Notes: generated from the letters alone by a model not told the origin. 51,346 nucleotides of DNA from a virus (IMGVR_UViG_3300049259_000157:1-51346); one strand, 5' to 3'. Positions 673 through 50,979 are shown, numbered from the stretch's first letter. A program made the numbers and translations.

Positions 673-711
673 CCAGCTTGCACGGCGCGCTGTCCTGTGC
701 GACCACGTGGC

Positions 712-951
712 ATGCCCAATCAGGCCCTCGAAACCGTCATCGTCATGGTCAACAACGAAACCAACAGCATCGCCGTCACGGTGACCACCCTCCGCGATGA
801 GCTGGCCGGCGGAGATCCCCCGAGCCAGGCGCAGCTCGATCAGTTGTCCGCGATCGCCGCCCGGCTGCATGCGATCGCGGCCGATCCGAACGACCCGGTT
901 CCCGTTGCGCCCACGTCGACGGCGACCGCGGTTCCGACGTCGGCGGCCTGA
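712..951 (+). CDS. Small helical hypothetical protein (MPNQALETVIVMVNNETN...)
   Basis: Clean ORF with normal codon bias, converging on 957..2228. Confidence 0.7.
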   Translation: MPNQALETVIVMVNNETNSIAVTVTTLRDELAGGDPPSQAQLDQLSAIAARLHAIAADPNDPVPVAPTSTATAVPTSAA

Positions 952-956
952 GGCTT

Positions 957-2228
957 CTACTCGCCGCCGGAGCCGAGCGCCTTTTTCTTCGGCTGATGCG
1001 GCTTGAACGCCTCGCTCGTATTGATCGAGACGCCGCCAATCTTCGTGATCTCCAGGGTGACGGCGTCGAACACGCCGTCACCTTTTCTCGTTTCCATCTT
1101 GTCCTTGGGTCCCTTGTTCGCGGCGACGACCTCACGCAGCGCGGAGAACGACGTCTTGAGCTCGAACGCGGTCATCGCGCGCTCGGCCCCGTAGCGGCGC
1201 TCCATCACCTGGTAGGCGATCTTGGGATCGACGGTTCGCCACTTTCGCTCGACGCGCTCGATGATGCGCCCGTCGGCCAGCGGGATCGGCCCGGCGACCG
1301 CGCTGATGTTGCAGATCTCCTGCTTGACGCGCGCGAGCGCTTCCTCGATCCGCTCCGCCATCATGAAAACGTCGGCCGCGTTCCGAATGGTGATCGCCTT
1401 GGCATCGAACGCCAGCTTGCCCTCGGGATCGAGCGGACCGACGCCCATCGCGACGAGCTCGGCCGGCACCGAGCGGAGCATCTCGGTTTTGGCCCGACAG
1501 TTCAGATACGCCGGGCAGTAGTCGCAGTGCGCCCCCTCGCGGAGCGGCACGAGACGGCCGGCCTGGAGGTCATCGCGGTAGCCCTCGGCGAGCACGAACG
1601 CGGCGCGCAGCTCGAGGTCGAAGGCGTCAAGGTCCCACGAGTCGACGACGCGCCGCACGCTGTGGTGATCGCCGTCGTCATGGATGTACGTGAGCGAGAC
1701 CTCGACCTCGTCGACGCCATAGATCCGCTGGATGCACAGCGCGCCGAGCATCGTCTGGCCCCACTGGTCGGGCGTGGGGTACTTCGTGTGGCCGCTCTTG
1801 TAGTCGTCGCAGATGCCGCGCACGGCGTCGTGGTAGATGCCGGCGACGTCGATCGTGATGGGGATCTCGGGCCAGACCGGCGGATCCGCGACTCCGCCGT
1901 AGCCGCGGTTGAGGCCACGGCCCAGCACGCGCGCGCCGCCCGTCTGGCAATTCCACGCGAAGGCGACCTCGCAGGTCACCTCGGCGGGCAGGCGATCCAG
2001 GTCGATGCAGCTCAGCATCAGCCGCAGATCCTTGGGCGCGGCCGCGAGCGCGGCGTCGATCCCGATCTCGCGCACCGTCTCGAGAAACTTGTGGATGTCT
2101 TTGCCGCGGTTTCGCGCCGGCTCGGTGCGCGCTTCCTCGGTGTCGTTGATGACGCCAGGCAGCTCGGCGCTGGCGGGGCACTTCCAGAGGCGGTGCACCT
2201 TGGACCCAGTTATTTCGCGGCAGGTCAC
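957..2228 (-). CDS. PD-(D/E)XK exonuclease, Cas4/AddB-like
   Basis: N-terminal KCPAS, IH motif, IDV...DDYKSG nuclease motif, C-terminal HCDYCPAYLNC Cys cluster; same operon as the RecT-like gene. Confidence 0.85.
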   Translation of the reverse strand: MTCREITGSKVHRLWKCPASAELPGVINDTEEARTEPARNRGKDIHKFLETVREIGIDAALAAAPKDLRLMLSCIDLDRLPAEVTCEVAFAWNCQTGGARVLGRGLNRGYGGVADPPVWPEIPITIDVAGIYHDAVRGICDDYKSGHTKYPTPDQWGQTMLGALCIQRIYGVDEVEVSLTYIHDDGDHHSVRRVVDSWDLDAFDLELRAAFVLAEGYRDDLQAGRLVPLREGAHCDYCPAYLNCRAKTEMLRSVPAELVAMGVGPLDPEGKLAFDAKAITIRNAADVFMMAERIEEALARVKQEICNISAVAGPIPLADGRIIERVERKWRTVDPKIAYQVMERRYGAERAMTAFELKTSFSALREVVAANKGPKDKMETRKGDGVFDAVTLEITKIGGVSINTSEAFKPHQPKKKALGSGGE

Positions 2229-2743
2229 GTTGAAGGCTCCGAGCGCTCAATCCGAGGGAGCCCAAGGGCTCGCCGCACCTCTTGCTTCGTGGGGTACCTC
2301 GAAATCCGATCGGTCCAATACGAGGTGACCCAGGCATCGAACCCTGACAGCCCGCATGCCAGGAATCCGAACGGGATATCGTTCGGATGCAGCCAGAGCG
2401 CGGTCAGGTCATAGACAACGAACGCGCCGGAGAATCCGCACCCCTCGCGGATCCCATGGAGCCGCTCCTCGTCCATGCCTTCCGATATCCTGCTTCCCAG
2501 CAGCACGATCCCGTCGGTGCGCTCTACCGTTGCGCAGTCATCGCGCATGCCGTGGCGTCGCTGGTCGTGGTCATGGTCGTCCGCCCCGGCGAGGATCGCG
2601 GCGATCCATGGAGCGATAAACACGGTCTCTGGGAACGTCTTGCGCAACCACGCGAGCCATCGCATAGCGTTTTCGATGTTGGCCTTCACGCCTTCCGGCG
2701 TTGATGCACCGAGCGGATGGGCTACATAGAGCACGAGCGTCAA
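2225..2743 (-). CDS. DUF4406/nucleoside-deoxyribosyltransferase-like fold protein
   Basis: TTG start overlapping the upstream TGA; LYVAHP...NIENA...FIAPW...DGIVLLGSRISEGMDEE pattern. Confidence 0.65.
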   Translation of the reverse strand: MTLVLYVAHPLGASTPEGVKANIENAMRWLAWLRKTFPETVFIAPWIAAILAGADDHDHDQRRHGMRDDCATVERTDGIVLLGSRISEGMDEERLHGIREGCGFSGAFVVYDLTALWLHPNDIPFGFLACGLSGFDAWVTSYWTDRISRYPTKQEVRRALGLPRIERSEPST

Positions 2744-2970
2744 GGCGTCACCTCGAGCTCGCGGTCGACGGCGCTGGCGAATACGCCATAGGCGTATGCC
2801 GCCGATCGCAGGTCCGCCGACGTCGTCGCGTTCGCCGCGGCGCCATACGCGATCGCGGCACCGCGCAGCCGACGGTCGAGCTCGAACAGCCGGTCGACCA
2901 CGGATACCGCGATCGCGGGTGGCGGCCACGCGACGTCGGCGACCACCTCCATCTTGACGGTACGCGTCAC
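2740..2970 (-). CDS. Hypothetical protein
   Basis: 4-nt overlaps with both neighbours. Confidence 0.65.
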   Translation of the reverse strand: MTRTVKMEVVADVAWPPPAIAVSVVDRLFELDRRLRGAAIAYGAAANATTSADLRSAAYAYGVFASAVDRELEVTP

Positions 2971-4227: not shown

Positions 4228-4259
4228 TTGACAGGGGCGCACAGATTCTGTACTACTTT
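4228..4259 (+). promoter_or_regulatory. Sigma70-like promoter in a divergent intergenic region, with an overlapping ACAG-ATT-CTGT inverted repeat (4241-4251)
   Basis: TTGACA at 4228-4233, 17-nt spacer, AT-rich TACTACTTT. Confidence 0.6.
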
Positions 4260-4265
4260 TCTAGA

Positions 4266-4514
4266 ATGAGCGGCAAGCCGTTACCCAGACCACCGGCGCC
4301 GCAACGGCGGCTGCCGACGAAAATGGAAGCCTGGTACCTCGACTGCCTGACGAGGTGGACCAGCTACTACAAGCGGGCGCCGAAGATCTCGGAGCTCGCG
4401 GCCTACTGCGACAGGAGCAACACCGCGGTTCACTCGGCGCTGATCTCGCTCCTCAACAAGGGGCACGTCATCCAGAACACGGACCGCAGGTTCGAGCCCC
4501 GCGGAGCATCGTGA
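4266..4514 (+). CDS. Winged-HTH protein resembling the LexA DNA-binding domain (no peptidase domain)
   Basis: APKISELAAYCDRSNTAVHSALISLLNKGHV matches the LexA N-domain pattern; 82 aa. Confidence 0.7.
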   Translation: MSGKPLPRPPAPQRRLPTKMEAWYLDCLTRWTSYYKRAPKISELAAYCDRSNTAVHSALISLLNKGHVIQNTDRRFEPRGAS

Positions 4515-7234: not shown

Positions 7235-7282
7235 CCCATCAACAATCCGCACGCACGGTCGACCCACACCAGACAGGAACCC

Positions 7283-8620
7283 ATGAGCGACACCACAGAT
7301 CTCCAGGCAATCATCAACGCGATCACGTCGCCGACGTTCGTGCTCCGGCTCGACCCGGGTCGGACCTATGTCATAGAGCCCGGCCCCAACACCACACGCG
7401 GGCTGTACATCCCGCCGTCTGCGGCCGGCTTGCGGATCATCGGACGCGGCGCGGCGTTCTCCGTGGTCCGCGGCGTTCCTGCCGCGTTCAACACCATCGT
7501 GGTCGATGCGCCAGGGGTCGTCGTCTGCGACCTCGACCTCGAAGGCGGCGTCCAGCCGGATGGTACAGGACACCGGCACGGCGTATTCGTCAGCGCGCCA
7601 TCGGTGACGCTTGAGCGGGTGTCAGCGTCGCTGCACGAAGGCGATGGAATCGTCCTCTACACGGGTGCCGATGACGCACAGATCAGGTCGTGCAAAGCGC
7701 GCGGCAACAAGCGAAACGGACTGACGTTCAACGGTGCGACGCGGCACGTAACCGTACAGGACAGCGAATTCGCGGCGAACGCCGCTCAGCAGGTCGACTT
7801 CGAGATCGGAGTGGGCGCACCCGAGTCGGCCGGGGTGGTCGACTCGACGCTCCTGCGCTGCACGATGAGTCCAGGGCCCAGCCAGGACTACGTGTTGACG
7901 CTCGGCGACCACGGCATGAACCAGCGCGTGCTCGACTGCGTCATCAACGGCGGCATCAAGATCGTCAACGGGACCGACATCGAGATCAGTCGGTGCAGAG
8001 GCGACAACGAGACCGCGAAGGCGATCGAGATCACCGGCGCGAGCGACAAGGTTCGCATCCTCGACAGCCAGTTCTCGGCGCTCGTCGCCAAGCGCGCGAT
8101 CTGGATCGCCGGCGGGACGGGCGGGGTTCCGGGCCGAATCGAGCTTAACGATCTCGGGCTGTCAGTGCACGACGTCGGCGCCTGCGCGATCGAGATCAAC
8201 GGTGCGGCCGACACCGTGATCTCGCAATGCCAGCTGCAGGGCGCCGGCGTTCCGGTGGCCGGCCGCGGCGGCGTGATGATCCGTTCGACGCTCATGGATC
8301 ACCCGATGGAGACGGTCAAGATCGACTCGACCTCGTTCGACTCGTTCGGCGAGGCCGGGATCGTAGTCGGAGGGATTACCGCGGTCGACAGCGCCGGCGT
8401 GCGCCACTACTCGCAGCTTCGCCGGCTCGTCGTGTCGGAGTGCGACTTCGGCAACAACCCGGGCGACGCCTCGCTGACCACCGCGATCCTCGCCGACCGG
8501 ACCTTGCTGCAGCTGGTGATCGGCCCTGACATCACGCTCGAGGGCGGCGTCACGCTGGGCGGCGTGCCATCCATCGGCGCCGGATGGGCGACAACCACGG
8601 TTGTTGTGCCGCAGCCGTAG
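7283..8620 (+). CDS. Right-handed parallel beta-helix (pectate-lyase-like) protein, possible polysaccharide depolymerase
   Basis: N-terminal DTTDLQAIIN...LDPGRTY; repeated GDGIVL / RNGLTF / VTVQDSEFAAN beta-helix rungs; AGGA RBS. Confidence 0.85.
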   Translation: MSDTTDLQAIINAITSPTFVLRLDPGRTYVIEPGPNTTRGLYIPPSAAGLRIIGRGAAFSVVRGVPAAFNTIVVDAPGVVVCDLDLEGGVQPDGTGHRHGVFVSAPSVTLERVSASLHEGDGIVLYTGADDAQIRSCKARGNKRNGLTFNGATRHVTVQDSEFAANAAQQVDFEIGVGAPESAGVVDSTLLRCTMSPGPSQDYVLTLGDHGMNQRVLDCVINGGIKIVNGTDIEISRCRGDNETAKAIEITGASDKVRILDSQFSALVAKRAIWIAGGTGGVPGRIELNDLGLSVHDVGACAIEINGAADTVISQCQLQGAGVPVAGRGGVMIRSTLMDHPMETVKIDSTSFDSFGEAGIVVGGITAVDSAGVRHYSQLRRLVVSECDFGNNPGDASLTTAILADRTLLQLVIGPDITLEGGVTLGGVPSIGAGWATTTVVVPQP

Positions 8621-8884: not shown

Positions 8885-9301
8885 CTAGACCATAGGGGCA
8901 TGCAGGATCGACGTCAAGTAGGCGCGTGACTCCGACGTCGGCGCACCCTTGACGAGAACCTGGGCGTGCATCGCGCCGGCGAGCTCCTCCGCCCCGGTCA
9001 GGAACACGAAGCGCGCGGCGAGCGCCGGCTGCTGGCGCCTGATCCACAGCAGGATGTTGCCGCCATTCTCGCTGGGATCGGCGAGCTCGAAGTCTGAGAC
9101 GACCAGGTCGACCTTGATGCAGGCCAGCACTGCGATCGCTGAGGACGCCGTGTCCCTGGCGACCACGTACGAGCCGGGGAAGCAGCGCGCGAGCCAGCGC
9201 TTGTGGGCCTCGAGCAGCCGGGGGTCATCGTCGACGACGAGGATGGTGTGCTGGATGATCTTACGGGTGACGTCCTGCGATTCGGTGGGATGCATGCCCA
9301 T
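8885..9301 (-). CDS. Single-domain response regulator (CheY-like receiver)
   Basis: ILVVDDD acidic pocket, VDLVVSD phospho-acceptor Asp, FLTG, VK. Confidence 0.9.
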   Translation of the reverse strand: MGMHPTESQDVTRKIIQHTILVVDDDPRLLEAHKRWLARCFPGSYVVARDTASSAIAVLACIKVDLVVSDFELADPSENGGNILLWIRRQQPALAARFVFLTGAEELAGAMHAQVLVKGAPTSESRAYLTSILHAPMV

Positions 9302-9352
9302 GATGTTCGTCCTGTGCGCAGAGTTGTTGGGGTACGGACCGGGTAGCTCGGC

Positions 9353-9397
9353 ACATGTTTGACATGTCTTCCAACCGGTGGCAGGATGTTTGACATG
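9353..9397 (+). promoter_or_regulatory. Promoter/operator with two direct repeats ATGTTTGACATG (9355-9366, 9386-9397)
   Basis: TTGACA 9359-9364, 17 nt, CAGGAT; second repeat overlaps the start codon. Confidence 0.7.
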
Positions 9398-9844
9398 GCA
9401 ACCAAAAAACCAAAGCCCAAGTCACGTAGGCCGGCAACCAGGCGCGATCCCGCGCCGGCGCGCCGCGGCCCAGCACCGCGCGCGGAGTCGGCTCGGACGG
9501 ACAGCCCGATCGGACTGCGCATGAACCCCGCCGAGATGGCCCACGTGCGCGCCGCGCTGGCCCAGCTCAACGAAGAGACCGGGCTCGTGCTGACGCCCGG
9601 AGCCTACGCCAAGCACGCTACGCTGTCGTATCGCAGGTTCCGGCTGATGGAACAGGCGATCCGTGCGTTGCGCGCCGACATGCGGCGGCCGCTCGATAAC
9701 GTCACGATCGATCGCCTCGACGCGATCATCTACACGCTGTCAGATGGCGTCGCGCCCAGCAAGCTGGCTCCGGACGAGGCCGCTACCGAGCAGGCCGCGA
9801 TCGCCGAGCACGAGGTCGCGGCGGATGTCGGGGGTGAGTCGTGA
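9395..9844 (+). CDS. Putative ribbon-helix-helix DNA-binding protein
   Basis: Basic N-tail then PIGLRMNPAEMAHVRAA...GLVLTPGAYAKHA, resembling the RHH beta-alpha-alpha pattern. Confidence 0.6.
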   Translation: MATKKPKPKSRRPATRRDPAPARRGPAPRAESARTDSPIGLRMNPAEMAHVRAALAQLNEETGLVLTPGAYAKHATLSYRRFRLMEQAIRALRADMRRPLDNVTIDRLDAIIYTLSDGVAPSKLAPDEAATEQAAIAEHEVAADVGGES

Positions 9845-13235: not shown

Positions 13236-13344
13236 CGCAAATCGCGCTACCCGATTGCGGTCGTCGATCCTGTTGCGGTCCTGGCTCGGAGGAACGAGAG
13301 TGCACAGGACTCGGAATTCCTCCGAGCGACTGGAGATACCGCAG

Positions 13345-17565: not shown

Positions 17566-17606
17566 TCCGCGAATCATTGACACTGTCCTGTGCGTTCGCC
17601 AGTGGG

Positions 17607-38872: not shown

Positions 38873-38905
38873 CGATTCCTCCTCAGTCACCGGCCATCGT
38901 AACAC

Positions 38906-41652: not shown

Positions 41653-42182
41653 GCGCTGCCCTGGGTATCGGCCGGGGCTTCCTGCAGTGCGGCGAGCTGC
41701 GCCGTCGTCGTCGCGGCGTCGACCCACGGATCGAGGCCGAGCTCGCTGAGCGCTTCGCAGACCTCGCAGGTCTCGGCCCGGCCCGGCTCGCAGATGCAGA
41801 GGGAATCCGGGTCGGGCGCGGTCACCAGCAGCAGCCCGAACATGTTAATCAGCGACTGGCGGACGCCGTCGAAGCGCCTCGACTTGGAAGCCTTGGAGCG
41901 GATCTCGTTGAGCCGCTCGAGCTTGCGCTTCTGGAACGCGTCGACGGGGAGCTCGCGGTACGCGGCGATGAGCTCGGCGGTCTGCGCGTCGTCGAGCTGA
42001 TAGAACAGCGCCAGGCGCTCGATCTTGTCGATGCGGCACGTGATCCTGTTCAGGCTCTCGAGGTTGCCGTACGACGACCCCGCGATGCCGATCGCGGCCG
42101 CAACCTCGCGCTGGCGGTAGCGATTCTTGACCCTGAGGTCGCGAACCATCTTCGGAAGCTTCATCTTCTCTGTTGTCGTCAT
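41649..42182 (-). CDS. XRE-family HTH regulator with a C-terminal Cys cluster
   Basis: VRDLRVKNRYRQREVAAAIGIAGSSYGNLE; CIC...CEVC. Confidence 0.88.
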   Translation of the reverse strand: MTTTEKMKLPKMVRDLRVKNRYRQREVAAAIGIAGSSYGNLESLNRITCRIDKIERLALFYQLDDAQTAELIAAYRELPVDAFQKRKLERLNEIRSKASKSRRFDGVRQSLINMFGLLLVTAPDPDSLCICEPGRAETCEVCEALSELGLDPWVDAATTTAQLAALQEAPADTQGSA

Positions 42183-43027
42183 TTGACCATCCTATCGGAT
42201 AAGTAAGGGTGATGTTCTACTCATGTGCTACCGAATATGTGTGCACGCAACTAGAACGTGCATGGCGCGCAACAGGTCTTAGTTTGGGTGGAGTTACATG
42301 TTTCATGTAACTCTCTTTTCTCCCCTCTCTCTCTCCCTCCCCGAAGGGGAGGAGAGAGGGAGAGAATTAAGAATCTGGTATCCTGCCAGATATAGGTACA
42401 GCAAGTAGAACGTCTAGCTGACGCGAGATAGCAGTTGTAAGCCAGCTCTATCATGTGTCCAATCGAGACCGCACGCCGACCAGGATGTCGGTAATGCAGG
42501 TCACTTCACCTATGGGAAAAGGAAGGAAGCTTTCTTTGCGAACCAACGCCTCGGCTGTCCTGCCCACCCGCCCCCAGTTAAAGCCCCGCCCCGCACACCA
42601 CGTGACGCCAGGCTGACGCCTGCCGCATCTGCTGCCCGACCCGGCTCAGCACCACCACCCCACGCCACTGAACGCGCTACAACGCACGCCATGCGATGCC
42701 CCCAATCGCGGTCTGACCATGCCCCGTTGCGCACTGCGCAACGCACTTGCGTGCACACGACCACACCAAGCGTGCTCGCGAACACGGGGTTTGCAGGCAG
42801 GCCGATCGTGCGTGATTGCGCGCCCGTCTTGACTTGCCTGCTCGCGCCTAGGCGCACACGCGTTTCTCGCGCGCCTGCGTCATCACATACGCGTGATCGC
42901 ACGCGAGGAAATCCTGAACAATTTCGCTGGGTTGCGAAAATGAGACGAGCCTCCCCTTGACGCCGATCCTCGGGATGACTAACCTGAGAATCTCGGGTCG
43001 TTCATCCCACGGCCCCCAAGGCACCCC
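42183..43027. promoter_or_regulatory. Divergent non-coding control region with palindromes and pyrimidine/purine tracts
   Basis: No convincing ORF; lower GC; GAGTTACATG-TTT-CATGTAACTC (42291-42313); CCTCCCC-GAA-GGGGAGG (42336-42352). Confidence 0.75.
42957..42985 (+). promoter_or_regulatory. Sigma70-like promoter for the rightward early genes
   Basis: TTGACG-17 nt-TAACCT. Confidence 0.7.
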
Positions 43028-43270
43028 ATGACCACCGCCGCCCACGCAGCCCTCGCCGAACTCGACCTCGCCCGGACCTACGCCCGGTCGCTGCACCTCG
43101 CCAAGACGGAGCGCCAGCAGGCGGCCCGACTCGCGACGTGCATGGCCTGCCTCCAGGCCGCACGGGCGGCCGGCGTCGCCGCTGGGATGCTGACCATCGT
43201 CGCTGCCTGCGACGAGCTCGCCACTGCCCTCCGCGCCGCGGTCGTCCAGACCGCCTCGCTTGCCGCCTGA
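43028..43270 (+). CDS. Small Ala-rich hypothetical protein
   Basis: First ORF after the promoter; AAGG RBS. Confidence 0.7.
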   Translation: MTTAAHAALAELDLARTYARSLHLAKTERQQAARLATCMACLQAARAAGVAAGMLTIVAACDELATALRAAVVQTASLAA

Positions 43271-43294
43271 TCACCCCGGACACCAGGAGCCACC

Positions 43295-43867
43295 ATGCAG
43301 AACATCGCAGCCCTCGCGAGCCACCTCGCCAGCATCAACACGCTCACCACCCGCACCGACGGCCATATCCGCGTCAAGCCACTCGAGCACGTCGCGGTGC
43401 GCACCAACCTCGGCCCCGGGCAGCTGCTGAGCGTCACCGACGACGCGTGGTGCCAGGTCCGCCTGACGGGCGAGGCTCGCACCGACGAGTACCCCATCGA
43501 GCTCTGCACCCTCGCTCTGCCCGATGCGACGGGCCCCCGGCAGCTCGACGTCGTGCTGCTCGCCGACCTCACCAGCATCCCCGAGGACGACCTCGCGATG
43601 GGCGTCGCGTCGGCGGGCCTCGACCCCGACGGCGAAGCGCAGCCCTGGTCGGCGGGCTACCCGCAGTCTGGGCAGACGGTCGCGGCCCTGGACTGCGAGG
43701 GCACGATGCGCCTCTGGGTGGTCGTCGCCAAGGAGAGCGGGCCGGGCGCGGGGATGCCGACCGCGATGGTCAGGCTCGCCGGCTACTCGAGCAACGCTCG
43801 GCAGCAGTGCAGCGTCGCCAGCGAGGTCTACGCGGTGACGTCGCTCCGGCCGCTGCGCGAGGTCTAG
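43295..43867 (+). CDS. Hypothetical protein
   Basis: AGGAG RBS, strong GC3 bias. Confidence 0.8.
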   Translation: MQNIAALASHLASINTLTTRTDGHIRVKPLEHVAVRTNLGPGQLLSVTDDAWCQVRLTGEARTDEYPIELCTLALPDATGPRQLDVVLLADLTSIPEDDLAMGVASAGLDPDGEAQPWSAGYPQSGQTVAALDCEGTMRLWVVVAKESGPGAGMPTAMVRLAGYSSNARQQCSVASEVYAVTSLRPLREV

Positions 43868-43960
43868 TCACCAGGGCCGCGAGGCCCGCTGGGTGCCGCC
43901 GGTTGCCGGCGACCCTCAGCGGACATCCCGTCCAGCCACCCAAGATACCAGGAGCCACCC

Positions 43961-44389
43961 ATGCGCCGCACCAAGTGCTTGTTCACCGCCCTCTGCCTCA
44001 TGCTGACCGCTGCAACCCCCGCCCTCGCCGGCAAGCGCCACGCCGATGCGCCGACCCTCGCGAGCGCCAAGCACGCGGTCGCTGCCTCGAAGCTGCGGCT
44101 CGCGAGCGCCAAGGGCGAGGCCAAGCTCGCCGCGCACCGCCTGAAGCTGGCCAAGGCCCAGGCCGCGGTCACCAAGGCGCAGCACAAGCTCGCCGTCGAG
44201 GCCTGGATCGAGCAGTGCATCTACGAGCGCACCGGGCCGACCGAGGGCATCACGGAGGGGGAGGCCGCGGTGATCTGCGCTGCCGAGGTCCCCGACGAGG
44301 CCGGCGACGACGCGCTCAATGCCTGGGCGCAGCGCACCCTGGGCCAGCCGATCATCACGCCCGCGGTGCTCGACGCCAGCCAGCAGTAG
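43961..44389 (+). CDS. Secreted protein (signal peptide, Ala/Lys-rich helix)
   Basis: MRRTKCLFTALCLMLTAATPALA; AGGAG RBS. Confidence 0.8.
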   Translation: MRRTKCLFTALCLMLTAATPALAGKRHADAPTLASAKHAVAASKLRLASAKGEAKLAAHRLKLAKAQAAVTKAQHKLAVEAWIEQCIYERTGPTEGITEGEAAVICAAEVPDEAGDDALNAWAQRTLGQPIITPAVLDASQQ

Positions 44390-44466
44390 CCGACGGGGCC
44401 CGGCGCCCTCTGGCTGCATGCCTCGTTGCCTGCAGCTCCTCGACGCCGAGCACTGTCGCCCCCTTG

Positions 44467-44520
44467 TTACAGTTCGATACTCGCGACGCCCGCTCAAACC
44501 GCAACCCCGGACACCAGGAG
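44467..44520 (+). promoter_or_regulatory. Conserved early intergenic element, copy A
   Basis: 25/31 identity with 46071-46101; followed by GGACACCAGGAG. Confidence 0.65.
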
Positions 44521-44525
44521 AGACC

Positions 44526-44843
44526 GTGAAGAACCTCGCACCCTCTACCCTCGCATCCCTGCCGCCCGCCGCGGCCATCGAGCTGCACTCGCTCGCCGAC
44601 CTTGAGGCCGCGTTCAACGCGCGACGCCTCGCGCTCCGCGAGCAAGCCGATGCCCAGCTCCTCGCGGGGCGCGTGCTGATCGGCACGATCCCCCAGCCGT
44701 CGATGGCATCGCCGACGGGCCCCCGCACCCAGCCGCGCGACGGCCGCGGCAGGTTCCTGAACCGGGCGTGGCTCGCTGCGGCCGAGAGCTACTCGCCGGC
44801 CGAGCTCGCCTGGTTCCGGGCCCCGATCGCGGAGGGCAAGTAA
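44526..44843 (+). CDS. Hypothetical protein with a QPRDGRGRF motif, ends AEGK
   Basis: GTG start with AGGAG RBS. Confidence 0.75.
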   Translation: MKNLAPSTLASLPPAAAIELHSLADLEAAFNARRLALREQADAQLLAGRVLIGTIPQPSMASPTGPRTQPRDGRGRFLNRAWLAAAESYSPAELAWFRAPIAEGK

Positions 44844-44847
44844 CATG
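44828..44847 (+). repeat. Gene-junction repeat CGCGGAGGGCAAGTARCATG (also 45090-45109, 45244-45264, 45672-45691, partial 46586-46602)
   Basis: Read directly; each copy encodes the C-terminus, stop, RBS and next start. Confidence 0.9.
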
Positions 44848-45105
44848 GAGGCGCCGACGTTCGGCTACGTCGCGAACCGCTCGCCCACGGGCGACGCGAG
44901 CGCGCTCCTCGTCAGTCGCGCCGACGATGGCCGCTGGATGTTCCAGCCTGACGAGGGCGGGCCGCTGCGCGAGCTCGTCGGGCGCCACAGGCTCTACGCG
45001 AAGCGCGACGAGGCCGTGCTGATCGCTCGATTCCTGTGGCGGTGCAACGGCGGTCGGCCCCGTTCGATGCGGCCCGTGTCCATCGGCTACGCGGAGGGCA
45101 AGTAG
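44845..45105 (+). CDS. Hypothetical protein, ends AEGK
   Basis: Bounded by junction repeats. Confidence 0.75.
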   Translation: MEAPTFGYVANRSPTGDASALLVSRADDGRWMFQPDEGGPLRELVGRHRLYAKRDEAVLIARFLWRCNGGRPRSMRPVSIGYAEGK

Positions 45106-45106
45106 C

Positions 45107-45259
45107 ATGTCGATCTACAACAAGTTCGGTCCTCGCGGCCAGGTTGGCGGACATGACGTTGTGCCGCCACGCTGCATGGTGTGCAAGACGCCCGTACGAC
45201 CCGGCATGAACGATCCCTGCAGATGCTTCCCTGCAGATGCTTCCGCGAAGGGCAAATAG
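45107..45259 (+). CDS. 50-aa Cys-containing peptide, ends AKGK (not in the ORF track)
   Basis: MSIYNKFGPRGQVGGHDVVPPRCMVCKTPVRPGMNDPCRCFPADASAKGK. Confidence 0.65.
   Translation: MSIYNKFGPRGQVGGHDVVPPRCMVCKTPVRPGMNDPCRCFPADASAKGK
45214..45241 (+). repeat. 14-nt tandem duplication TCCCTGCAGATGCT x2
   Basis: Read directly. Confidence 0.9.
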
Positions 45260-45261
45260 CC

Positions 45262-45687
45262 ATGGCGCAGAAACTCGTGCGCTTCGAAACCTGGGAGCAA
45301 GTGCTGGAAGCGGCGCGTTCCGGAGAGCGTCTCTGGTACGCCTCACCGATGGACGTCGCATCGGCGTATGGGCGTCGCATCGTCGCGGTGATCCGCGTGT
45401 ACAAGAACGGCAAGCTGCGCATCGACGCGATGTCGAGCCAGCTGGACAACTTCACCGCAGACGCTGGCCATCTGTATAGGTTCTTTCGCCGCGCGAAAGA
45501 CGAGCCTCTGCCCGATGCCACCTCGATCGCCAGCGCGGTCAGGCAACTCGGCCATCACGCGAATCTCACTAATCTCGCACACCTCGGCTGGACGCGTCGG
45601 GATGTCCAGGCCGCGGTCAGACGGGGCGAAATCGCCTGGACTGCTAGCGGAACACTTGAAGCCAGCGACGTCGCGGAGGGTAAGTAG
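45262..45687 (+). CDS. Hypothetical protein with a possible C-terminal HTH, ends AEGK
   Basis: MAQKLVRFETWEQV...; bounded by junction repeats. Confidence 0.75.
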   Translation: MAQKLVRFETWEQVLEAARSGERLWYASPMDVASAYGRRIVAVIRVYKNGKLRIDAMSSQLDNFTADAGHLYRFFRRAKDEPLPDATSIASAVRQLGHHANLTNLAHLGWTRRDVQAAVRRGEIAWTASGTLEASDVAEGK

Positions 45688-45688
45688 C

Positions 45689-46003
45689 ATGGCAGGCTCA
45701 AAACGCTCCGCCATCGAGGTGTGCGCGCTTCGCGTTCGAGCACTAGTCGCCCATGATGCCAAGAGACACGCTCTTGTCCGTTCGGTTCTGAACGCACGCG
45801 CCGAGCGCTGTGATGCGAAATGCCCTGGCTGGCTCATCGATTCGGAGCGAGCTGGACGCATCATGCGGTGCGACGAATGCGCAAGCCTCAACGGCTACGC
45901 TGACGTCCTGCGTGACGCCGATGTTTCGAAGCTGCCCGCGGCGATCGATGCACAGATCGCATCGCTGCCTAACAGCGCCGGCGCTCGACGGAAGCGCACC
46001 TAG
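45689..46003 (+). CDS. Cys-containing hypothetical protein
   Basis: CDAKC...CDEC; starts at a junction repeat. Confidence 0.7.
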   Translation: MAGSKRSAIEVCALRVRALVAHDAKRHALVRSVLNARAERCDAKCPGWLIDSERAGRIMRCDECASLNGYADVLRDADVSKLPAAIDAQIASLPNSAGARRKRT

Positions 46004-46070
46004 CCCCTCGGCCCGTGGGGCCCAGCGACGGCATCGGTCAGTCTGTGCCGCGGCTCGACGCCACGACCTA

Positions 46071-46117
46071 TTGCAATTGGATACTTGCCACGCACGCTCA
46101 ACACAGGACACCAGGAG
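46071..46117 (+). promoter_or_regulatory. Conserved early intergenic element, copy B
   Basis: TTGCAATTGGATACTTGCCACGCACGCTCAA then GGACACCAGGAG. Confidence 0.65.
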
Positions 46118-46122
46118 GGACT

Positions 46123-46428
46123 ATGCCGTTTTACAGGACGCCACCGCTCACTCGCCTCGCCGAGACCTACGTCTCGATCATGCCACGAACCTGCAGCCTC
46201 GCGCTGCAGGGCCACGCCGAGGCGATTCGCTCGCTAGAGCTCGTCGCGCTCGCCGACTCGGTGCAGCCGATCGCCGAGGCGTCGTGCTTGCGCCTGTTCG
46301 GACGCGGCGTGTCTTGGAGGGCAATCGCGACGACCATGGCGATCTGCCGCAATGCTGCCAAGTCGGACAGGGCACGCGCCATCCTCGGCCGCGCCTCAAT
46401 CTACGCCGAGCGCAAGGCGGTGTCGTGA
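46123..46428 (+). CDS. Hypothetical protein
   Basis: AGGAGG RBS. Confidence 0.7.
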   Translation: MPFYRTPPLTRLAETYVSIMPRTCSLALQGHAEAIRSLELVALADSVQPIAEASCLRLFGRGVSWRAIATTMAICRNAAKSDRARAILGRASIYAERKAVS

Positions 46429-46598
46429 TGGACCGCTGGAACGTCCACACTGGTCGCCCGTCGTGGCATCAGGCCAAGGCTGGCCACATCTCCGCGGGCT
46501 GCACGAGCTTCACGGATCGCCAAGCTGCCGATCGCTACGCCGACACCTATCGCCGCAACCACCCTGACGATCCGTGCTTCGTGCAGGAGGTCAAGTAG
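46428..46598 (+). CDS. 56-aa hypothetical protein (MDRWNVHTGRP...)
   Basis: TGATG coupling. Confidence 0.65.
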   Translation: MDRWNVHTGRPSWHQAKAGHISAGCTSFTDRQAADRYADTYRRNHPDDPCFVQEVK

Positions 46599-46599
46599 C

Positions 46600-46830
46600 A
46601 TGCCGGCGCGCGGCGACCTCACGGTGCCATACGCCTACCACGGAGTCTCCGACGGCGTTCCCACGCCATGGATCGCGCAGGACCTGACGCTCCTCGAGCA
46701 GATCGCAATCGAGGCCGCGCTGCACGACGATCACCTCACGGTCGAGCTGTGCGAGCTCGCGGTCCACGGATCGCCCAACGTGAGGGAGGCCGCATGCGAT
46801 GCGATCTACGCGAAGCTCGGTGGGCGATGA
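46600..46830 (+). CDS. Hypothetical protein
   Basis: AGGAGG RBS in a junction repeat. Confidence 0.7.
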   Translation: MPARGDLTVPYAYHGVSDGVPTPWIAQDLTLLEQIAIEAALHDDHLTVELCELAVHGSPNVREAACDAIYAKLGGR

Positions 46831-47075
46831 GCTTGAAATTCGCAGTCAACGGCGCTCCGATACCGTGTCCGGGCGCCACTCTCGAGTACCACAACGGGTC
46901 CGTCCGTTGCCCAGAATGCGCAGCGGCGTGGGGCTCGGTCGAGCCATTCATCGTAGCATCCAAGCGGCTAATTCAGGCGCTCGAGACATCCGACCCGCGC
47001 GGCGTCCTGCCGGAGCTCGCCGAGCGTATGATGCTTATCTGGGGCGAGGCCATGCGGGGGACCGAGGGCCAATAG
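46827..47075 (+). CDS. Small Cys protein (CPG...CPEC)
   Basis: ATGA overlap. Confidence 0.7.
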   Translation: MSLKFAVNGAPIPCPGATLEYHNGSVRCPECAAAWGSVEPFIVASKRLIQALETSDPRGVLPELAERMMLIWGEAMRGTEGQ

Positions 47076-47130
47076 CGTCCGTGGCGCCCAGCGATTTCAC
47101 AGGTATGTCCTGTGCGCTCGCTAGACCCCA

Positions 47131-47177
47131 TTGACAATGTGATACTTCGGACGACACTTCACACAGGACACAGGAGG
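47131..47177 (+). promoter_or_regulatory. Conserved early element, copy C, with a perfect TTGACA and AGGAGG RBS
   Basis: TTGACAATGTGATACTTCGGACGACACT; flanked by GTCCTGT (47107) and ACAGGAC (47163). Confidence 0.65.
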
Positions 47178-47183
47178 TTTGGA

Positions 47184-48725
47184 ATGGAAATCGAGCTCGA
47201 AATCGACGCACCGTGCAACCAATGCGGCCGCGTCAGACTCCTCGGCGTGGATGGCAGCTGCCGACCGTGCGCAACCGACCGACCGACGGTCAGCTACCAG
47301 GCCGATCCGCCCGCCATCATCGTCAACGGATCTTCGCAGGCATCGGTGGATGCGGTGAGCGAATCGCTTCGCGATATCGTCGCGGCATCCCGTCACAACT
47401 CGTCCGTGCAGGGCATCGGATCTCTGGCCGGGGGCCAGCTGCAGGGGATCGGGTTCTCCAACAAGGAGGGCTACATCACGGCGATCCGCAACGGGGTTCC
47501 TGGCCGCACGCACGCCGAGTACATGACGGTGCTGCGCTCGCGGTACGGCATGACCACGGCCGACATCGCGGCGCTCGCGCTGCCGGGCCCCATGACGCCG
47601 ACCGCGCTCCCCGATGGCCCCGGCATCAAGCATGTGCCGACCGGGCCGTCCGTCTTCGACCGGCCGCGCTCGGAACGCACGTTCGTCGTCGGGCCCAAGG
47701 CGAACGACGTCGTTGAGGCCGCGCCGATCGTCAAGCTTGAGCACGGCCAGCTCATCGCCGGCGCGACGGCCGAGGGGCACGGAGTCCTGGTCGGCTGGCA
47801 GGGCCAGGGCAAGCTCTCCCGCGGTGCGCTTGTCGCGGCGATCGAGACGCTGGGCGTCAGGGTGCCGCTCGCGACGTCGGCTCGCGCACAGGCAGGCCGG
47901 GTCATGGGCGAGCTGAACGGGCTCGGCTACGTGGTCCGCGTCGCCCGCGAGGCCAGGGCGGTCAACACCACGATATGGACGATCGGGCGGGTCAATCACA
48001 AGTCGCTCGTGGGCAGCGAGCTCGGCGAGGTCACGATGCGCGCCACGCTGCATCCCGACGGCTCGATCACGACCGATGGCGGCGGGGGTCTCGCAGAGCA
48101 AGTGCAGGCCAAGTACAAGACGCTCGTCGAGGGCGAGATCTACCAGGCCGCCGACATCACCGGCTGGCTCGTCCGCACGCTGATGATCGGCTACGACGCG
48201 GTGCGGTTCGGCGTCGGCTGGTACGTGCCAGCGCGGCATGCCGCGGCCGCGGGCGAGCTGTGCGCGACGGTCTCTAAGATCTGGGGCTCGGACTGGATCG
48301 TGCCCGCGCTGCCCGTGGCGACCAGCGACCAGCTGCGCGATGGCATCGTTCGTGGACTCACGGACGAGGTCGCGAGCCTGCTGCACAAGCTGGCGACTGA
48401 GCGCAACACGGCACAGGTGGCATATGAGGACCGCGTTGCGACGCACAAGGCCAACCAGCAAGACCTGATGATCGGGCGCGGCGACATCGGCCCCAAGCGC
48501 GCGGCGTCGTTCCTGGTCGAGCTCCGCGCGATCGGCGCCCGCATGGTGGCCTACGGGCAGATCCTCGGCGAGGAGCGCGTGAAGCTCGCCAGCGACAGCG
48601 TGCGCGCCGCGGTCGTCGAGCTCGAGTCGGTGCTCAGCGATGACTTCTCGGGGATCAGCGCACGGTTCGCCGCGGTGTGGGACGAGATCGAGCTCGACCG
48701 CAAGCGCTCGGGCGGGGTGCTCTGA
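47184..48725 (+). CDS. Large early protein: N-terminal CxxC-CxxC finger, C-terminal DUF6744/DUF3150-like region
   Basis: CNQC...CRPC; VLVGW...GWYVP...helical C-terminus; family call tentative. Confidence 0.7.
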   Translation: MEIELEIDAPCNQCGRVRLLGVDGSCRPCATDRPTVSYQADPPAIIVNGSSQASVDAVSESLRDIVAASRHNSSVQGIGSLAGGQLQGIGFSNKEGYITAIRNGVPGRTHAEYMTVLRSRYGMTTADIAALALPGPMTPTALPDGPGIKHVPTGPSVFDRPRSERTFVVGPKANDVVEAAPIVKLEHGQLIAGATAEGHGVLVGWQGQGKLSRGALVAAIETLGVRVPLATSARAQAGRVMGELNGLGYVVRVAREARAVNTTIWTIGRVNHKSLVGSELGEVTMRATLHPDGSITTDGGGGLAEQVQAKYKTLVEGEIYQAADITGWLVRTLMIGYDAVRFGVGWYVPARHAAAAGELCATVSKIWGSDWIVPALPVATSDQLRDGIVRGLTDEVASLLHKLATERNTAQVAYEDRVATHKANQQDLMIGRGDIGPKRAASFLVELRAIGARMVAYGQILGEERVKLASDSVRAAVVELESVLSDDFSGISARFAAVWDEIELDRKRSGGVL

Positions 48726-48961
48726 TGCCGACTCGCACAGAGCTGCAGCTCGAACTACAGGGCATCATGCGCGCCCTTGACGAGACGATGCAGGAGATCC
48801 ACGGCGAGCGCATCGGCGTGACGCTGTTCGTGTTCGAGCTCGGCAAGGATGGCGGCACGAACCTCGCGTACGTCTCGAACGCCGAGATCCCGGCGATGAT
48901 CCAGACCGTCAAGGGATGGCTCGCGATGGTGGAGAGCGGCATGACGAGCGAACCGCGGTGA
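48725..48961 (+). CDS. Hypothetical protein (GVTLFVFE...YVSNA)
   Basis: TGATG coupling. Confidence 0.75.
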   Translation: MPTRTELQLELQGIMRALDETMQEIHGERIGVTLFVFELGKDGGTNLAYVSNAEIPAMIQTVKGWLAMVESGMTSEPR

Positions 48962-49164
48962 ACCGCCAGCGCCGCGACCAGGTCAGACGGCATACGCTCG
49001 AGTATCTCGGGAACCTGCTGCATTGTTGTCCCGATCAACGCGGTCAACTATACGTTGACGACACGGGCAGGGTGATAAACGACGACGAACAACGGTTTAT
49101 CGTCTCCATTTGCCAGCAAGAGGGGATGCGGCTCATCGCCCGCGCCAAGAGGAGCAAGCCGTGA
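48958..49164 (+). CDS. Hypothetical protein, ends KRSKP; more AT-rich codons
   Basis: GTGA coupling. Confidence 0.65.
   Translation: MNRQRRDQVRRHTLEYLGNLLHCCPDQRGQLYVDDTGRVINDDEQRFIVSICQQEGMRLIARAKRSKP
49147..49164 (+). repeat. Gene-junction repeat AAGAGGAGCAAGCCGTGA (exact copy 49344-49361, partial 49603-49612)
   Basis: Read directly. Confidence 0.9.
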
Positions 49165-49361
49165 TCACCGGGTGTTACGACCTCGTGCTGTATTGCGACG
49201 CCGACGGATGCCACGGCGGACGGGCTCGCGGGCCATCCAGGTTCGAGGCGACCGATGAGTTCGGATCGGTGTGCCGCACGATGGCACGCCAAGACGGATG
49301 GGTGCTGCGGCGTGACGGCACCTGCGTATGCCCGGCCTGCGCAAAGAGGAGCAAGCCGTGA
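49161..49361 (+). CDS. Small zinc-finger protein, ends KRSKP
   Basis: LYCDADGC...GW...CVCPAC. Confidence 0.75.
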   Translation: MITGCYDLVLYCDADGCHGGRARGPSRFEATDEFGSVCRTMARQDGWVLRRDGTCVCPACAKRSKP

Positions 49362-49612
49362 GTAGGGCCAAGTTCAAACCCGGTCAGGCCGTCGAGGTTC
49401 TTCGGGACATGCAGAGAACGTGGGAAGCTGCCACCTACGTGGGACGATGTCAGTCGATCGGGCGCTCGTTCCATCGCGTGAAGCTTGCGACACCTAAGCG
49501 CATAGACAGCGGCACCGGAATTGACATCGACGCCGATGATCCGCGCGGATACCTGACGGACAATGATGTCCTGCCTGCCATGCGGATTCGCCACCCCAAG
49601 GCCAAGCCGTGA
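49358..49612 (+). CDS. Small SH3/Tudor-like beta protein, ends KAKP
   Basis: FKPGQAVEV...WEAATYVG. Confidence 0.7.
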   Translation: MSRAKFKPGQAVEVLRDMQRTWEAATYVGRCQSIGRSFHRVKLATPKRIDSGTGIDIDADDPRGYLTDNDVLPAMRIRHPKAKP

Positions 49613-49917
49613 GACTTCGCAAGCCAGGGGTCACCGATCTGACGCTCATGACCACCATCGTGCTGACCGACGGCATCCCGCAGATCCGCTTCTGGGACGA
49701 TGACGAGGAGGACGACGCCATGGAGTACATCCGCAAGATCAAGGAGCCCGGCGCGGCATACGTCAGCCGCGTGACCTGGAATGGCGAGCTCAAGCTCGCC
49801 TCCGTGAAGTACCAGGCGAGCTCGATCACCAGGGCTTGCCCGAAGTGCAACGCCCCGGTCGGCGCGGGCTGCAAGAAGCCCAACGGTGACCCCACAGCGC
49901 TACACAGGATGCGATGA
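49609..49917 (+). CDS. Protein with a C-terminal zinc finger
   Basis: CPKCNAPVGAGC...H. Confidence 0.75.
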   Translation: MRLRKPGVTDLTLMTTIVLTDGIPQIRFWDDDEEDDAMEYIRKIKEPGAAYVSRVTWNGELKLASVKYQASSITRACPKCNAPVGAGCKKPNGDPTALHRMR

Positions 49918-50016
49918 CGCCTCCGGGGTGGAAGGCGACCGAGCCGTTCCAATAGGACGCCGCGCGTTGGCGCCTTGCGGCGCGCCCATCATGTGGGCGG
50001 ACCGGAGGGATTCAAC

Positions 50017-50526
50017 ATGAGTACAGACGACAACCCAGACACCACGCGCGCGAAGATGATCGCGCTCCTCGCCCTACTCGACGTACTCGAGGGCGGCGGC
50101 GACATGACAGCGATCGGCATCGACCGCATCGACAAGGTCGGCGACCACAACGGAGGCAGATTCGCCGGCAAGCTCCGGCTCAAGTTCACCGTGTTCGCGA
50201 CGGAGTCGCGCACGATGGAGCTCGCCGACGAGCTGCGCTCGAGTAGCTCAGAGCAGGCCATGCTTTCCATGGTCGCTCAGCGGATCGGCCGCGACGACAA
50301 GCTCAAGTTCGCGCTGCGGATGATCGGCGCCTGGTCGGAGCTTGCGCAGCGCCTGGTCGACATGTTCTACACCAAGGGCAAGCTACTCGCCGAGGGCCGC
50401 AGGCAGTTGCCCGAGCCCGTCACCGCGGGCCCAGTTCCGGCGGCGCACTGCTTCGACGCAAGCGCATGCGTGTTGGGAAAGCCCTGCAAATGCTCTTGTT
50501 TAGCCTGCAGGCCAAAGCTGAAATGA
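50017..50526 (+). CDS. Hypothetical protein with a Cys-rich tail
   Basis: GGAGG RBS; HCF...CKCSCLAC. Confidence 0.75.
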   Translation: MSTDDNPDTTRAKMIALLALLDVLEGGGDMTAIGIDRIDKVGDHNGGRFAGKLRLKFTVFATESRTMELADELRSSSSEQAMLSMVAQRIGRDDKLKFALRMIGAWSELAQRLVDMFYTKGKLLAEGRRQLPEPVTAGPVPAAHCFDASACVLGKPCKCSCLACRPKLK

Positions 50527-50738
50527 AGCCCAAGGGCTACATCGACCTCGATCAGCTGCGCGACCAGATCGCACAGGCCGCTGAGGAGATCGCGGCGGGC
50601 GCCGGGATCGAGAACCCACGCGCCCGCGTCGAGCTCGACCTGCCCAGCAAGGGCAAGCGAACCATCCGCGTCTACGTCTCGCACGCCTCGAAAGAGGACT
50701 ACGAGCGCCAGACCGGCCTCAAGTGGCAAGACAACTAA
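50523..50738 (+). CDS. Hypothetical protein
   Basis: ATGA overlap. Confidence 0.7.
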   Translation: MKPKGYIDLDQLRDQIAQAAEEIAAGAGIENPRARVELDLPSKGKRTIRVYVSHASKEDYERQTGLKWQDN

Positions 50739-50760
50739 CGCTACAGGACAGGAGCGGGAC

Positions 50761-50979
50761 ATGTACCAAGTTCGACAGGATGGACAGGACTGTGACAGCG
50801 ACATTTCGCTGATCGGCGCGACGATTCGCGCAAAGTCGCGGGCGACCTACGCCGGCAAGGGCAAGTTCACCGTGATGCGCCTGCTGTTCGCGCCGGGCCG
50901 CGAGGGCAAGCACCTCGGCGAGGAGCTCGCAGCGTCGTACACCTGGACCGGCGGCAAGCTGATCGCGTGGGTGCGATGA
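50761..50979 (+). CDS. Hypothetical protein; leader and 5' end dense in CAGGA motifs
   Basis: AGGAG RBS. Confidence 0.7.
   Translation: MYQVRQDGQDCDSDISLIGATIRAKSRATYAGKGKFTVMRLLFAPGREGKHLGEELAASYTWTGGKLIAWVR

Follow-up and report, generated by a model that had tools for sequence, protein, structure and literature searches.

What is the heptamer ACAGGAC (GTCCTGT on the opposite strand) doing in a phage genome that contains it several times more often than chance would predict? The question arises from IMGVR_UViG_3300049259_000157:1-51346, a complete virus from IMG/VR that is called G000 in our comparisons and whose full length of 51,346 bp is referred to below as the window. The original prediction for this DNA described the heptamer as a genome-wide, dispersed network of selected binding sites, of either DNA or RNA. 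The motif is almost certainly non-random and under selection. Its excess, however, is not genome-wide but falls mostly on non-structural genes, in their leaders and around the sites of translation initiation (16 of the 25 copies are near starts, and 11 are intergenic), and we favour, with moderate confidence, a reading in which ACAGGAC is a lineage-specific start-associated leader element of these genes that is read on the mRNA.

The 25 copies are distributed over both strands. The 23 positions listed originally are all occupied, and two further copies, at 11843 (ACAGGAC on the minus strand) and 22797 (ACAGGAC on the plus strand), had been overlooked; the second lies between 18586 and 38786, a stretch that was thought to hold none. 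The excess over chance is borne out, with roughly 4.5–5.5 copies expected: dinucleotide shuffles gave 4.51 ± 1.98 (n = 100; maximum 9, none reaching 25) and Markov models of orders 1–3 predict 4.4–5.5. Five related phages, which serve as an empirical control, carry 3–7 copies each. The measured GC content is 66.9%, not the 68% or so estimated by eye. Under a maximal-order Markov model, no hexamer is more over-represented than ACAGGA, of which there are 52 copies. As had been reported, four copies (692, 9309, 17585 and 47107) share the 10-mer GTCCTGTGCG, and three extend to a quasi-palindrome, ACAGTCCTGT.

Genes were defined with our own caller, based on codon usage and on GC content at third codon positions (GC3), which yielded 79 genes. 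The starts at ATG 17577, ATG 41359 and ATG 13345 were corrected by eye, and an open reading frame (ORF) termed gX (41356–41727, minus strand), joined to the next gene by an ATGA overlap, was added to the set. Eleven copies of the heptamer lie wholly between genes, where 0.44 would be expected for the 4,436 bp of non-coding sequence (P = 2e-12), and no 7-mer is more enriched there. Windows extending from −60 to +30 nt around start codons occupy 14% of the genome and contain 16 of the 25 copies (P = 1.3e-8), 12 in sense and 4 in antisense orientation. The 12 sense copies fall between −45 and +27, and seven of them are at −25 to −1, where 0.49 would be expected (P = 8e-7). In the same interval, ACAGGA is found before 8 of 58 non-structural genes and before none of the 22 genes of the virion block (Fisher P = 0.10).

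Inside genes, expectations were obtained by shuffling synonymous codons within each gene (2000 shuffles). Eleven in-gene copies compare with 5.08 expected (P = 0.007), and ACAGGAC ranks 173rd among all canonical 7-mers in coding DNA, such that the proposal that the heptamer is kept through rare codons reduces to at best a weak effect. In non-structural genes, 6 copies are in sense (1.95 expected; P = 0.006), and coding DNA holds 4 antisense copies where 2.3 are expected. The virion genes, among which the large terminase and major head protein were recognized via PHROGs, form a minus-strand block (17607–38383) that holds two copies against 1.9 expected. This is therefore the baseline, with no avoidance, and the supposed absence of the motif from the virion core is a background effect. 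Scoring of 7-mers genome-wide and by module thus gives enrichment over Markov expectation, a mild in-gene excess and a virion block at baseline; copies deep within genes are close to chance level.

Seven copies stand at the position of a Shine-Dalgarno (SD) sequence, and all seven precede ATG. Four end exactly 7 nt before the start codon, and there AGGA is the sole SD-like element. They are found on the minus strand at 9309–9315 (ATG 9301 of g14, 8885–9301, encoding a receiver-domain protein), within the 10-mer CGCACAGGAC; at 17585–17591 (ATG 17577 of g30, 16843–17577), again within CGCACAGGAC and in the 29-nt gap after g31; at 38787–38793 (ATG 38779 of g53, encoding 67 amino acids), as part of the quasi-palindrome ACAGGACTGT; and at 41367–41373 (ATG 41359 of g59, encoding a Cys-rich protein of 181 amino acids), in the 3′ end of the overlapping gX. 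This end of gX is a run of rare codons, in a GC3-rich genome, that coincides exactly with an inverted pair and the SD of g59. The g30 product has a lipoprotein-like signal peptide, as judged by eye, and g53 is kept in five of six relatives.

In the remaining three cases, the copy ends 11–14 nt before ATG and a canonical SD then follows. That at 46103–46109 (plus strand) ends 13 nt before ATG 46123 of g68, with the SD CCAGGAGG directly after it and GATACTT 16 nt upstream (46080–46086). At 47163–47175 (plus), ACAGGAC and ACAGGAG stand in tandem (ACAGGACACAGGAGG), the heptamer ending 14 nt before ATG 47184 of g71, with GATACTT 15 nt upstream (47141–47147). At 50743–50753 (plus), ACAGGAC overlaps ACAGGAG, begins 5 nt past the stop of g76 and ends 11 nt before ATG 50761 of g77. 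A promoter could not fit into the junctions occupied by several of the copies, namely gaps of 29 and 22 nt and an ATGA overlap. A sigma-70 promoter element was rejected: no common −35/−10 register was apparent by eye, no consensus promoter was found in 38300–51346, and a −10 role was discarded because SDs follow three of the copies.

Five further sense copies are close to starts without occupying the SD position. Three lie 29–36 nt upstream of ATG: at 39433–39439 (minus), 29 nt before ATG 39403 of g54 and inside the 3′ end of g55 (CGA CAG GAC); at 13304–13310 (plus), 34 nt before ATG 13345 and enclosed by a 10-bp inverted repeat (CTCGGAGGAA/TTCCTCCGAG); and at 15707–15713 (minus), 36 nt before ATG 15670 of g27, where the leader reads TTGACAGGACTGT. 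Two lie in codons 4–10: that at 46133–46139 (plus) occupies codons 4–6 of g68 (TAC AGG ACG, with the rare AGG), 30 nt past the leader copy, and that at 50784 belongs to an ACAGGAT–ACAGGAC pair in codons 5–10 of g77 (50775–50790, plus), its second member forming ACAGGACTGT. Among one-mismatch variants near starts, 7 of 12 differ at base 7, and the core is therefore ACAGGA with a preferred C. The variant ACAGGAA, for example, stands at 7273–7278 (plus), 4 nt before ATG 7283 of g12, which encodes a beta-helix protein. A leader word, GGACACCAGGAG, precedes g62 (43278–43289, plus) and recurs at 44509 (g64) and 46106 (g68), and the related GATACCAGGAG precedes g63.

The copies inside genes are a more mixed group. 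Two sense copies lie deep in g12 (7565–7762, plus), read as GGT ACA GGA at 7565 and GTA CAG GAC at 7756. That at 41436–41442 (minus) reads AAT ACA GGA CAC in gX and encodes the N-T-G-H of a C-x2-C-x4-H-x4-H motif, and that at 38930–38936 (minus) lies close to the g54 3′ terminus, 150 nt ahead of g53. The copy at 18579–18585 (minus; CTA CAG GAC in g31) is one of only two in the virion block and fits chance. The antisense coding copies, comprising 11843–11849 (minus; GTC CTG T on the sense strand of g18) and those at 22797, 40164 and 40265, match codon-driven chance. Of the rare-codon readings originally proposed, those at 7565, 7756, 18579, 41436 and 46133 are in frame as written; 15707 and 38787 are intergenic under our gene calls.

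The antisense copies between genes are arranged differently. Those at 692, 15792, 41384 and 47107 are each 10–78 nt from a sense ACAGGA, and an anti-copy on the same strand is present within 90 nt upstream at 4 of 11 leader sites (P = 8e-4). At 41384–41390 (plus), the g59 mRNA would read GTCCTGT 10 nt upstream of the 41367 copy, and a predicted 7-bp hairpin would cover the SD. The partner at 47107–47113 (minus), part of CGCACAGGAC, is 49 nt upstream of the g71 leader copy and lies in the palindrome CACAGG-N5-CCTGTG; that at 15792–15798 (plus) is 78 nt upstream of the 15707 copy with respect to the g27 mRNA strand; and a six-base partner at 13268–13273 (minus; TCCTGT on plus) is 30 nt upstream of the 13304 copy. 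The gap of 75 nt that precedes g3 contains (646–698) ACAGGA at 646 (plus) and, 13 nt before ATG 712, GTCCTGT at 692 (plus; ACAGGAC on minus). The 646 copy is part of a stable hairpin, CCCACAGG...CCTGTGGG (646–675, between g2 and g3; z = −2.8 for the region), which presents a perfect DnaA-box-like TTATCCACA in its loop and may be replication-related.

An element read on the mRNA would fit this arrangement as follows. The ACAGGA core, with the last base of the motif variable, carries the SD core AGGA. In four genes, the motif would itself be the ribosome-binding site; in three, it would form a tandem second purine box upstream of the SD; and in five more cases, its place is 29–36 nt upstream or among the first ten codons. 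Read in this way, it would set or co-ordinate the translation or the mRNA fate of a set of non-structural genes, its readers being the ribosome together with a trans-acting factor, or that factor alone. In four leaders, an upstream GUCCUGU could pair with the motif and so mask it. We infer the RNA level, the trans-acting factor and the masking; position, orientation and enrichment are observed directly, as is reuse before unrelated genes in the relatives described below. As between the DNA and RNA sites originally proposed, the RNA option fits best, and no binding protein can be assigned to either.

Could the host account for the motif? Nine IMG/VR relatives of the phage have terminases 46–60% identical to its own, and two more relatives were found in metagenome-assembled genomes (MAGs) labelled Haliangiales and Kofleriaceae. 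The latter would place the host in the corresponding order, tentatively because the assignment is based on two binned contigs. A very improbable explanation is that ACAGGAC is an abundant host word (Chi-like, uptake-like or repair-driven) mirrored in the phage. Relatives do differ in the word they favour, as phages of different hosts might. The density of ACAGGAC, however, is 0.02–0.13 per kb in 61 genomes of the candidate order (unchanged without G070) and 0.49 per kb in the phage, the true host not being identified; its copies show no strand polarity along the phage genome, and their excess is at gene starts rather than even. In 400 kb of one candidate-order genome (299 called genes), none of 20 ACAGGAC copies is near a start and two ACAGGA copies are at −25 to −1, the common pre-start words being GAGGAG and AGGAGC. 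The 16S rRNA of that genome has the canonical 3′ end CCTCCTTTCT and no GTCCTGT, which led us to reject extended 16S pairing. The motif carries the AGGA core, and its C2 and C7 cannot pair with the canonical tail CCTCCTTTCT of this candidate-order genome, the host itself not being identified.

A trans antisense RNA is not supported: no complementary copy of the 15-nt g68 leader exists on the other strand, and all seven near matches are leaders. Primase-site, Chi and methylation readings were dropped because the strand and position patterns do not fit.

Related phages provide a further view of the motif. The nine IMG/VR relatives, eight near-complete and one a 57% fragment (G008), were analysed with the same gene caller. 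At −22 to −3, ACAGGA is the top hexamer both in G000 (10 occurrences, 80 genes) and in G002 (10, 81 genes) and the third in G009 (6, 77 genes); it occurs 4 times in G005 and 0–2 times in each of G001, G003, G004, G006 and G007. All five ACAGGAC copies of G002 are in sense orientation at the SD position before ATGs of small early genes (e.g. ccACAGGACaggatacagaccATG), and the small early genes so tagged have no homolog in G000; in G009, too, the hexamer stands before genes that lack G000 homologs. Pooled −25 to −1 windows of the ten genomes contain 37 copies in sense and 5 in antisense orientation. Two g71 orthologs, one from G009 and one from a metagenome locus, L188, keep ACAGGAG at the SD: L188 (58% identity) has GATACTT-N15-ACAGGAG-N8-ATG, and in G009 GGACAGGAGCACTGCGATG is duplicated in tandem behind a TCCTGTC hairpin. 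The tag is therefore common to part of the phage family and stands ahead of unrelated genes. The g71 protein itself has no Pfam, PHROG or PDB sequence match, and shows a weak fold likeness to DUF6744 only.

The same leaders give rise to a more sceptical account, which we regard as unlikely, namely that no dedicated reader exists and that the pattern is a composite of SDs of the AGGAC or ACAGGA type, copied leader or promoter cassettes, and codon-driven copies (GTC CTG T, CAG GAC). The g68 and g71 leaders of G000 share GATACTT-N15/16-ACAGGACAC..AGGAGG over ~50 nt and are clearly paralogous, and g69 and g71 of G002 have identical 45-nt leaders. The start region of g71 is tandemly duplicated in G009 (18 nt twice, L018:6440-6476), in L194 (30 nt twice, 1100–1170) and in G000 (7 nt twice, 47163–47177). 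AGGAC(A) is moreover a common SD form in G000, and the rank of 173rd among coding 7-mers is in keeping with codon-driven copies. Against such an origin, flanks outside the g68/g71 pair share at most 10–11 nt, and old duplicates would have lost the 7-mer too unless it was selected. The canonical 16S tail offers no partner for the conserved C2 and the last C, ACAGGA tops the pre-start list of two phages before non-homologous genes, and anti-copies are over-represented upstream.

Two relatives broaden the picture beyond leaders. In the whole record of G009 (L018–L020), RGACAGGA is strongly over-represented within genes on both strands, including virion genes; GACAGGA totals 44 copies, 33 of them in genes compared with 8.1 expected from codon shuffles. 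The G006 record (L021–L023) has a word of its own, CATTGGA/TCCAATG, in 38 copies against ~3.6 expected. Ten G006 genes start TCCA-ATG, often as AGGAGCATCCAATG, others use CATTGGAGG as SD, and the g71 ortholog also carries TCCAATG; 21 CATTGGA copies are in genes, on both strands, compared with 3.8 expected from codon shuffles. A broader scheme can be built on these phages, although we consider it rather doubtful as a whole: each lineage would have its own heptamer code (ACAGGAC in G000 and G002, RGACAGGA in G009, CATTGGA/TCCAATG in G006), read by a trans-acting phage factor, either a protein or a small RNA. The codes would define an early-gene regulon at the level of mRNA leaders, with masking in cis by anti-motifs, and in some members would also operate on DNA or RNA within genes, on both strands.

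The top words of G001, G002 and G005 were rejected as analogues of the motif because they trace to tandem arrays or to a pentapeptide-repeat gene. At 46620–46800, G001 contains a long microsatellite of hexamers, (ACGGGN)n; in G002, 17-bp repeats of the CAGTACGGA type form arrays at the terminal repeat (1–200 and 53130–53469). Scans of IMG/VR for ACAGGACACCAGGAG and for GTCCTGT-N8-12-ACAGGAC were also set aside, returning mostly chance matches; the copies in L045 are within one long coding region.

The in-gene copies of G009 and G006 are also among the points that recommend a DNA-level site. On this account, which we think improbable, the heptamer would be a site or half-site of a phage regulator, such as the XRE protein g60, the winged-helix protein g8 or the zinc-ribbon proteins gX/g59, acting as an operator or as a stoperator-like roadblock. 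Copies are present on both strands, and there are five intergenic inverted arrangements, among which are GTCCTGT-N10-ACAGGAC and three ACAGGACTGT quasi-palindromes. The G009 and G006 heptamers occur in genes on both strands above codon-shuffle expectation (33 against 8.1 and 21 against 3.8), and two unrelated high-GC phage contigs, G072 and G073, hold 12-bp tandem GGACAGGACAGC arrays and inverted GGACAG clusters beside a winged-helix coding stretch with a weak likeness to g8. Other observations speak against a DNA-level site. Seven or eight bases are too unspecific against a host genome of several Mb, candidate-order genomes holding 87–1213 copies each. The spacing of inverted pairs varies from 10 to 78 nt, and the main regulatory gap of 845 bp beside the XRE gene is without a copy. 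No tyrosine or serine recombinase (PF00589, PF00239) was found in the window, and there is therefore no sign of lysogeny. Finally, five of five G002 copies are in sense at the SD position, and no candidate binder gene, whether XRE, winged-helix or zinc-ribbon, follows the motif across the relatives; g8, like g71, is also present in motif-negative ones.

The genes named as candidate binders have features of their own. Between the XRE gene (41649–42182, minus) and the early genes transcribed rightward lies the 845-bp gene-free gap (42183–43027); it holds two terminator-like hairpins, a long palindrome rich in CT/GA (ctctctccctccccgaaggggaggagagag) and no ACAGGAC. The small winged-helix gene g8 (4323–4514) heads the primase-helicase operon; upstream of it, at 4240–4290, is a promoter-like block, TTGACn-N15-TGTACTACTTTTCTAG, that is kept in four related phages, among them G009, G005 and G001. 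The gX (123 amino acids) and g59 (15 Cys, 7 CxxC) proteins are paralogous, basic and Cys-rich, their genes being joined by the ATGA overlap (40814–41727). The C-x2-C-x4-H-x4-H motif of gX resembles a knuckle, and homologs of the pair were found by tblastn only in G002 and G004 among the relatives compared. Two unrelated IMG/VR contigs, L119 and L126 (~58–60 kb, GC 0.68), contain 12-bp tandem GGACAGGACAGC arrays with dense inverted GGACAG/CTGTCC clusters, adjoining coding DNA whose winged-helix motif shows weak similarity to g8 (38.7% over 31 amino acids).

Several results weigh against a leader element read on the mRNA. The gene starts on which it depends are our own calls, and the comparison extends to relatives with at most 64% terminase identity. 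Over the whole genome, ACAGGAC is on the local sense strand in 17 copies, as originally counted, but of 25 rather than 23, and this bias is not significant (two-sided P = 0.11). The sense bias near starts is partly forced by the SD core, and is therefore no proof of a role at the RNA level. In-gene GACAGGA of G009 is in excess in both orientations (10 sense against 2.0 expected and 23 antisense against 6.1, by codon shuffle); many of the antisense copies read xTC CTG TCx. An mRNA leader element does not explain this excess. Folding finds no common hairpin-loop or structural context for the motif, and paired leaders are not significantly more stable than shuffled ones, except at 636–720 and 13255–13365. 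With respect to a reader, no G000 gene co-occurs with the motif across eight relatives (the best is present in 2 of 3 positives), and the window has no CsrA, RegB or RelE/ParE family match. PF10715 and PF05016 gave none at E ≤ 1, fold-level relatives being outside the reach of the search. CsrA (PF02599) is also absent from both MAGs with terminase relatives and from 41 genomes of the candidate order, the host assignment being tentative. Because family matches and a co-occurring phage gene are both lacking, the reader of the leader element may be host-encoded.

The phage that carries this element belongs to an uncultivated lineage from soil metagenomes, whose high-GC host is probably Gram-negative. 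The genome has a 127-bp direct terminal repeat. Outside the virion block, it encodes an exonuclease, RecT, a primase, a DnaB-like helicase and RusA, for replication and recombination, besides an XRE protein, a receiver-domain protein and numerous small ORFs without assigned function. Megablast with 25 kb found no match among deposited phages, for which the best terminase identity by tblastn is 22–23%. Many metagenomic relatives, on contigs of ~52 kb, have terminases with 50–64% identity, the nearest being at 64%. Longer contig pieces from four soil-metagenome DNA runs of one study, compared over 31347–51346, are identical to the window, and therefore include no informative diverged variant; no RNA run with this phage was listed. 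An Rfam scan of the window found no family.

Other signals in the window stand apart from the heptamer. The product of g14, a gene whose start is tagged by it, is a stand-alone response-regulator receiver domain of 138 amino acids (Pfam PF00072, 32 bits). The divergent region between this gene and g15 (9302–9520) contains ATGTTTGACATG twice, 32 nt apart, in what looks like an operator/promoter pair distinct from the heptamer. Across the window, GAGCTC occurs 198 times compared with ~56 expected and CGAGCTCG 84 times compared with ~11 (low-order Markov). Both are ~2-fold above codon-shuffle expectation, and CCWGG-containing words are high too, an excess that is probably codon-context or repair-related.

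How does the ACAGGAC element compare with known systems? A literature search for ACAGGAC in phages gave only an unrelated match. Like the sites of CsrA/RsmA, several GGA boxes may cluster around the SD and early codons, as at 50743–50790; unlike them, they have no consistent hairpin-loop context, CsrA is found neither in the phage nor in 41 candidate-order genomes, and the spacing between ACA and GGA differs from the CsrA/RsmA consensus. A second comparison is with phage T4. There, RegB cuts GGAG in the initiation regions of early genes and spares late messages, with RegB alone recognizing GGA (PMC3014915). As in the RegB/RegA case, a short SD-embedded purine motif is found in translation-initiation regions, in T4 as the target of a phage factor; unlike it, the window has no RegB/RelE-like family match, and extra bases are conserved 5′ of GGA. 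The stoperators of Cluster A mycobacteriophages are reported to be 13-bp sites, present in both genome arms, to which the immunity repressor of these temperate phages binds (PMC9283540, PMC6550527). The resemblance lies in many short asymmetric sites over a phage genome, often in short intergenic gaps and with a lineage-specific consensus. The differences are a site of 7–8 bp, the lack of an integrase among the genes found here, and a virion operon at background.

The closest parallel is provided by the start-associated sequences (SAS) of Cluster K mycobacteriophages, and their anatomy, as set out by Pope et al. (2011; PMC3203893), argues against an undescribed kind of system. SAS have been surveyed in 188 genomes, and their role was still called unverified in 2025 (PMC12699233). 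Both are short asymmetric repeats with about a dozen start-linked copies, a few nucleotides upstream and mostly of ATG; both are confined to the non-structural part of the genome (PMC3203893); both combine an SD core with conserved bases unable to pair with 16S rRNA; and both precede genes of different families in related phages, some copies having inverted repeats. There are also differences. The word is ACAGGAC rather than GGGATAGGAGCCC, and 7–8 rather than 13 nt long. Its placement is looser (−7 to −36, and +10/+23), with seven copies at 7–14 nt compared with 3–7 bp in Cluster K. It has antisense partner copies. With regard to the single orientation that goes with the SAS definition, 12 copies near starts are sense and 4 antisense, all four intergenic antisense copies pair with a nearby sense copy, and in G002 five of five are sense. 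The phage lineages are unrelated, and ACAGGAC lies outside the definition of SAS as GGGATAGGAGCCC with up to two mismatches in Cluster K. As both sequence and lineage differ, the element is therefore an analogue of SAS and not a member.

The window thus contains a new motif of the SAS kind, borne by a new phage lineage; its reach is narrower than originally proposed and its nature more ordinary. It offers short and mutable test cases, in the form of seven leaders of 20–60 nt, and in annotation it is of use for locating start codons and for telling early from virion modules in this phage family. If the scheme of lineage-specific heptamer codes were true, it would constitute an independent second occurrence of the SAS phenomenon, with a specificity that evolves between relatives. 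Since 2011, SAS have been on record for a single cluster of mycobacteriophages. The finding of an anatomically similar but unrelated motif in an uncultivated family of high-GC soil phages, some members of which share it while others have different words in its place, suggests that tagging the starts of non-structural genes is a recurrent phage strategy that extends beyond a single cluster.

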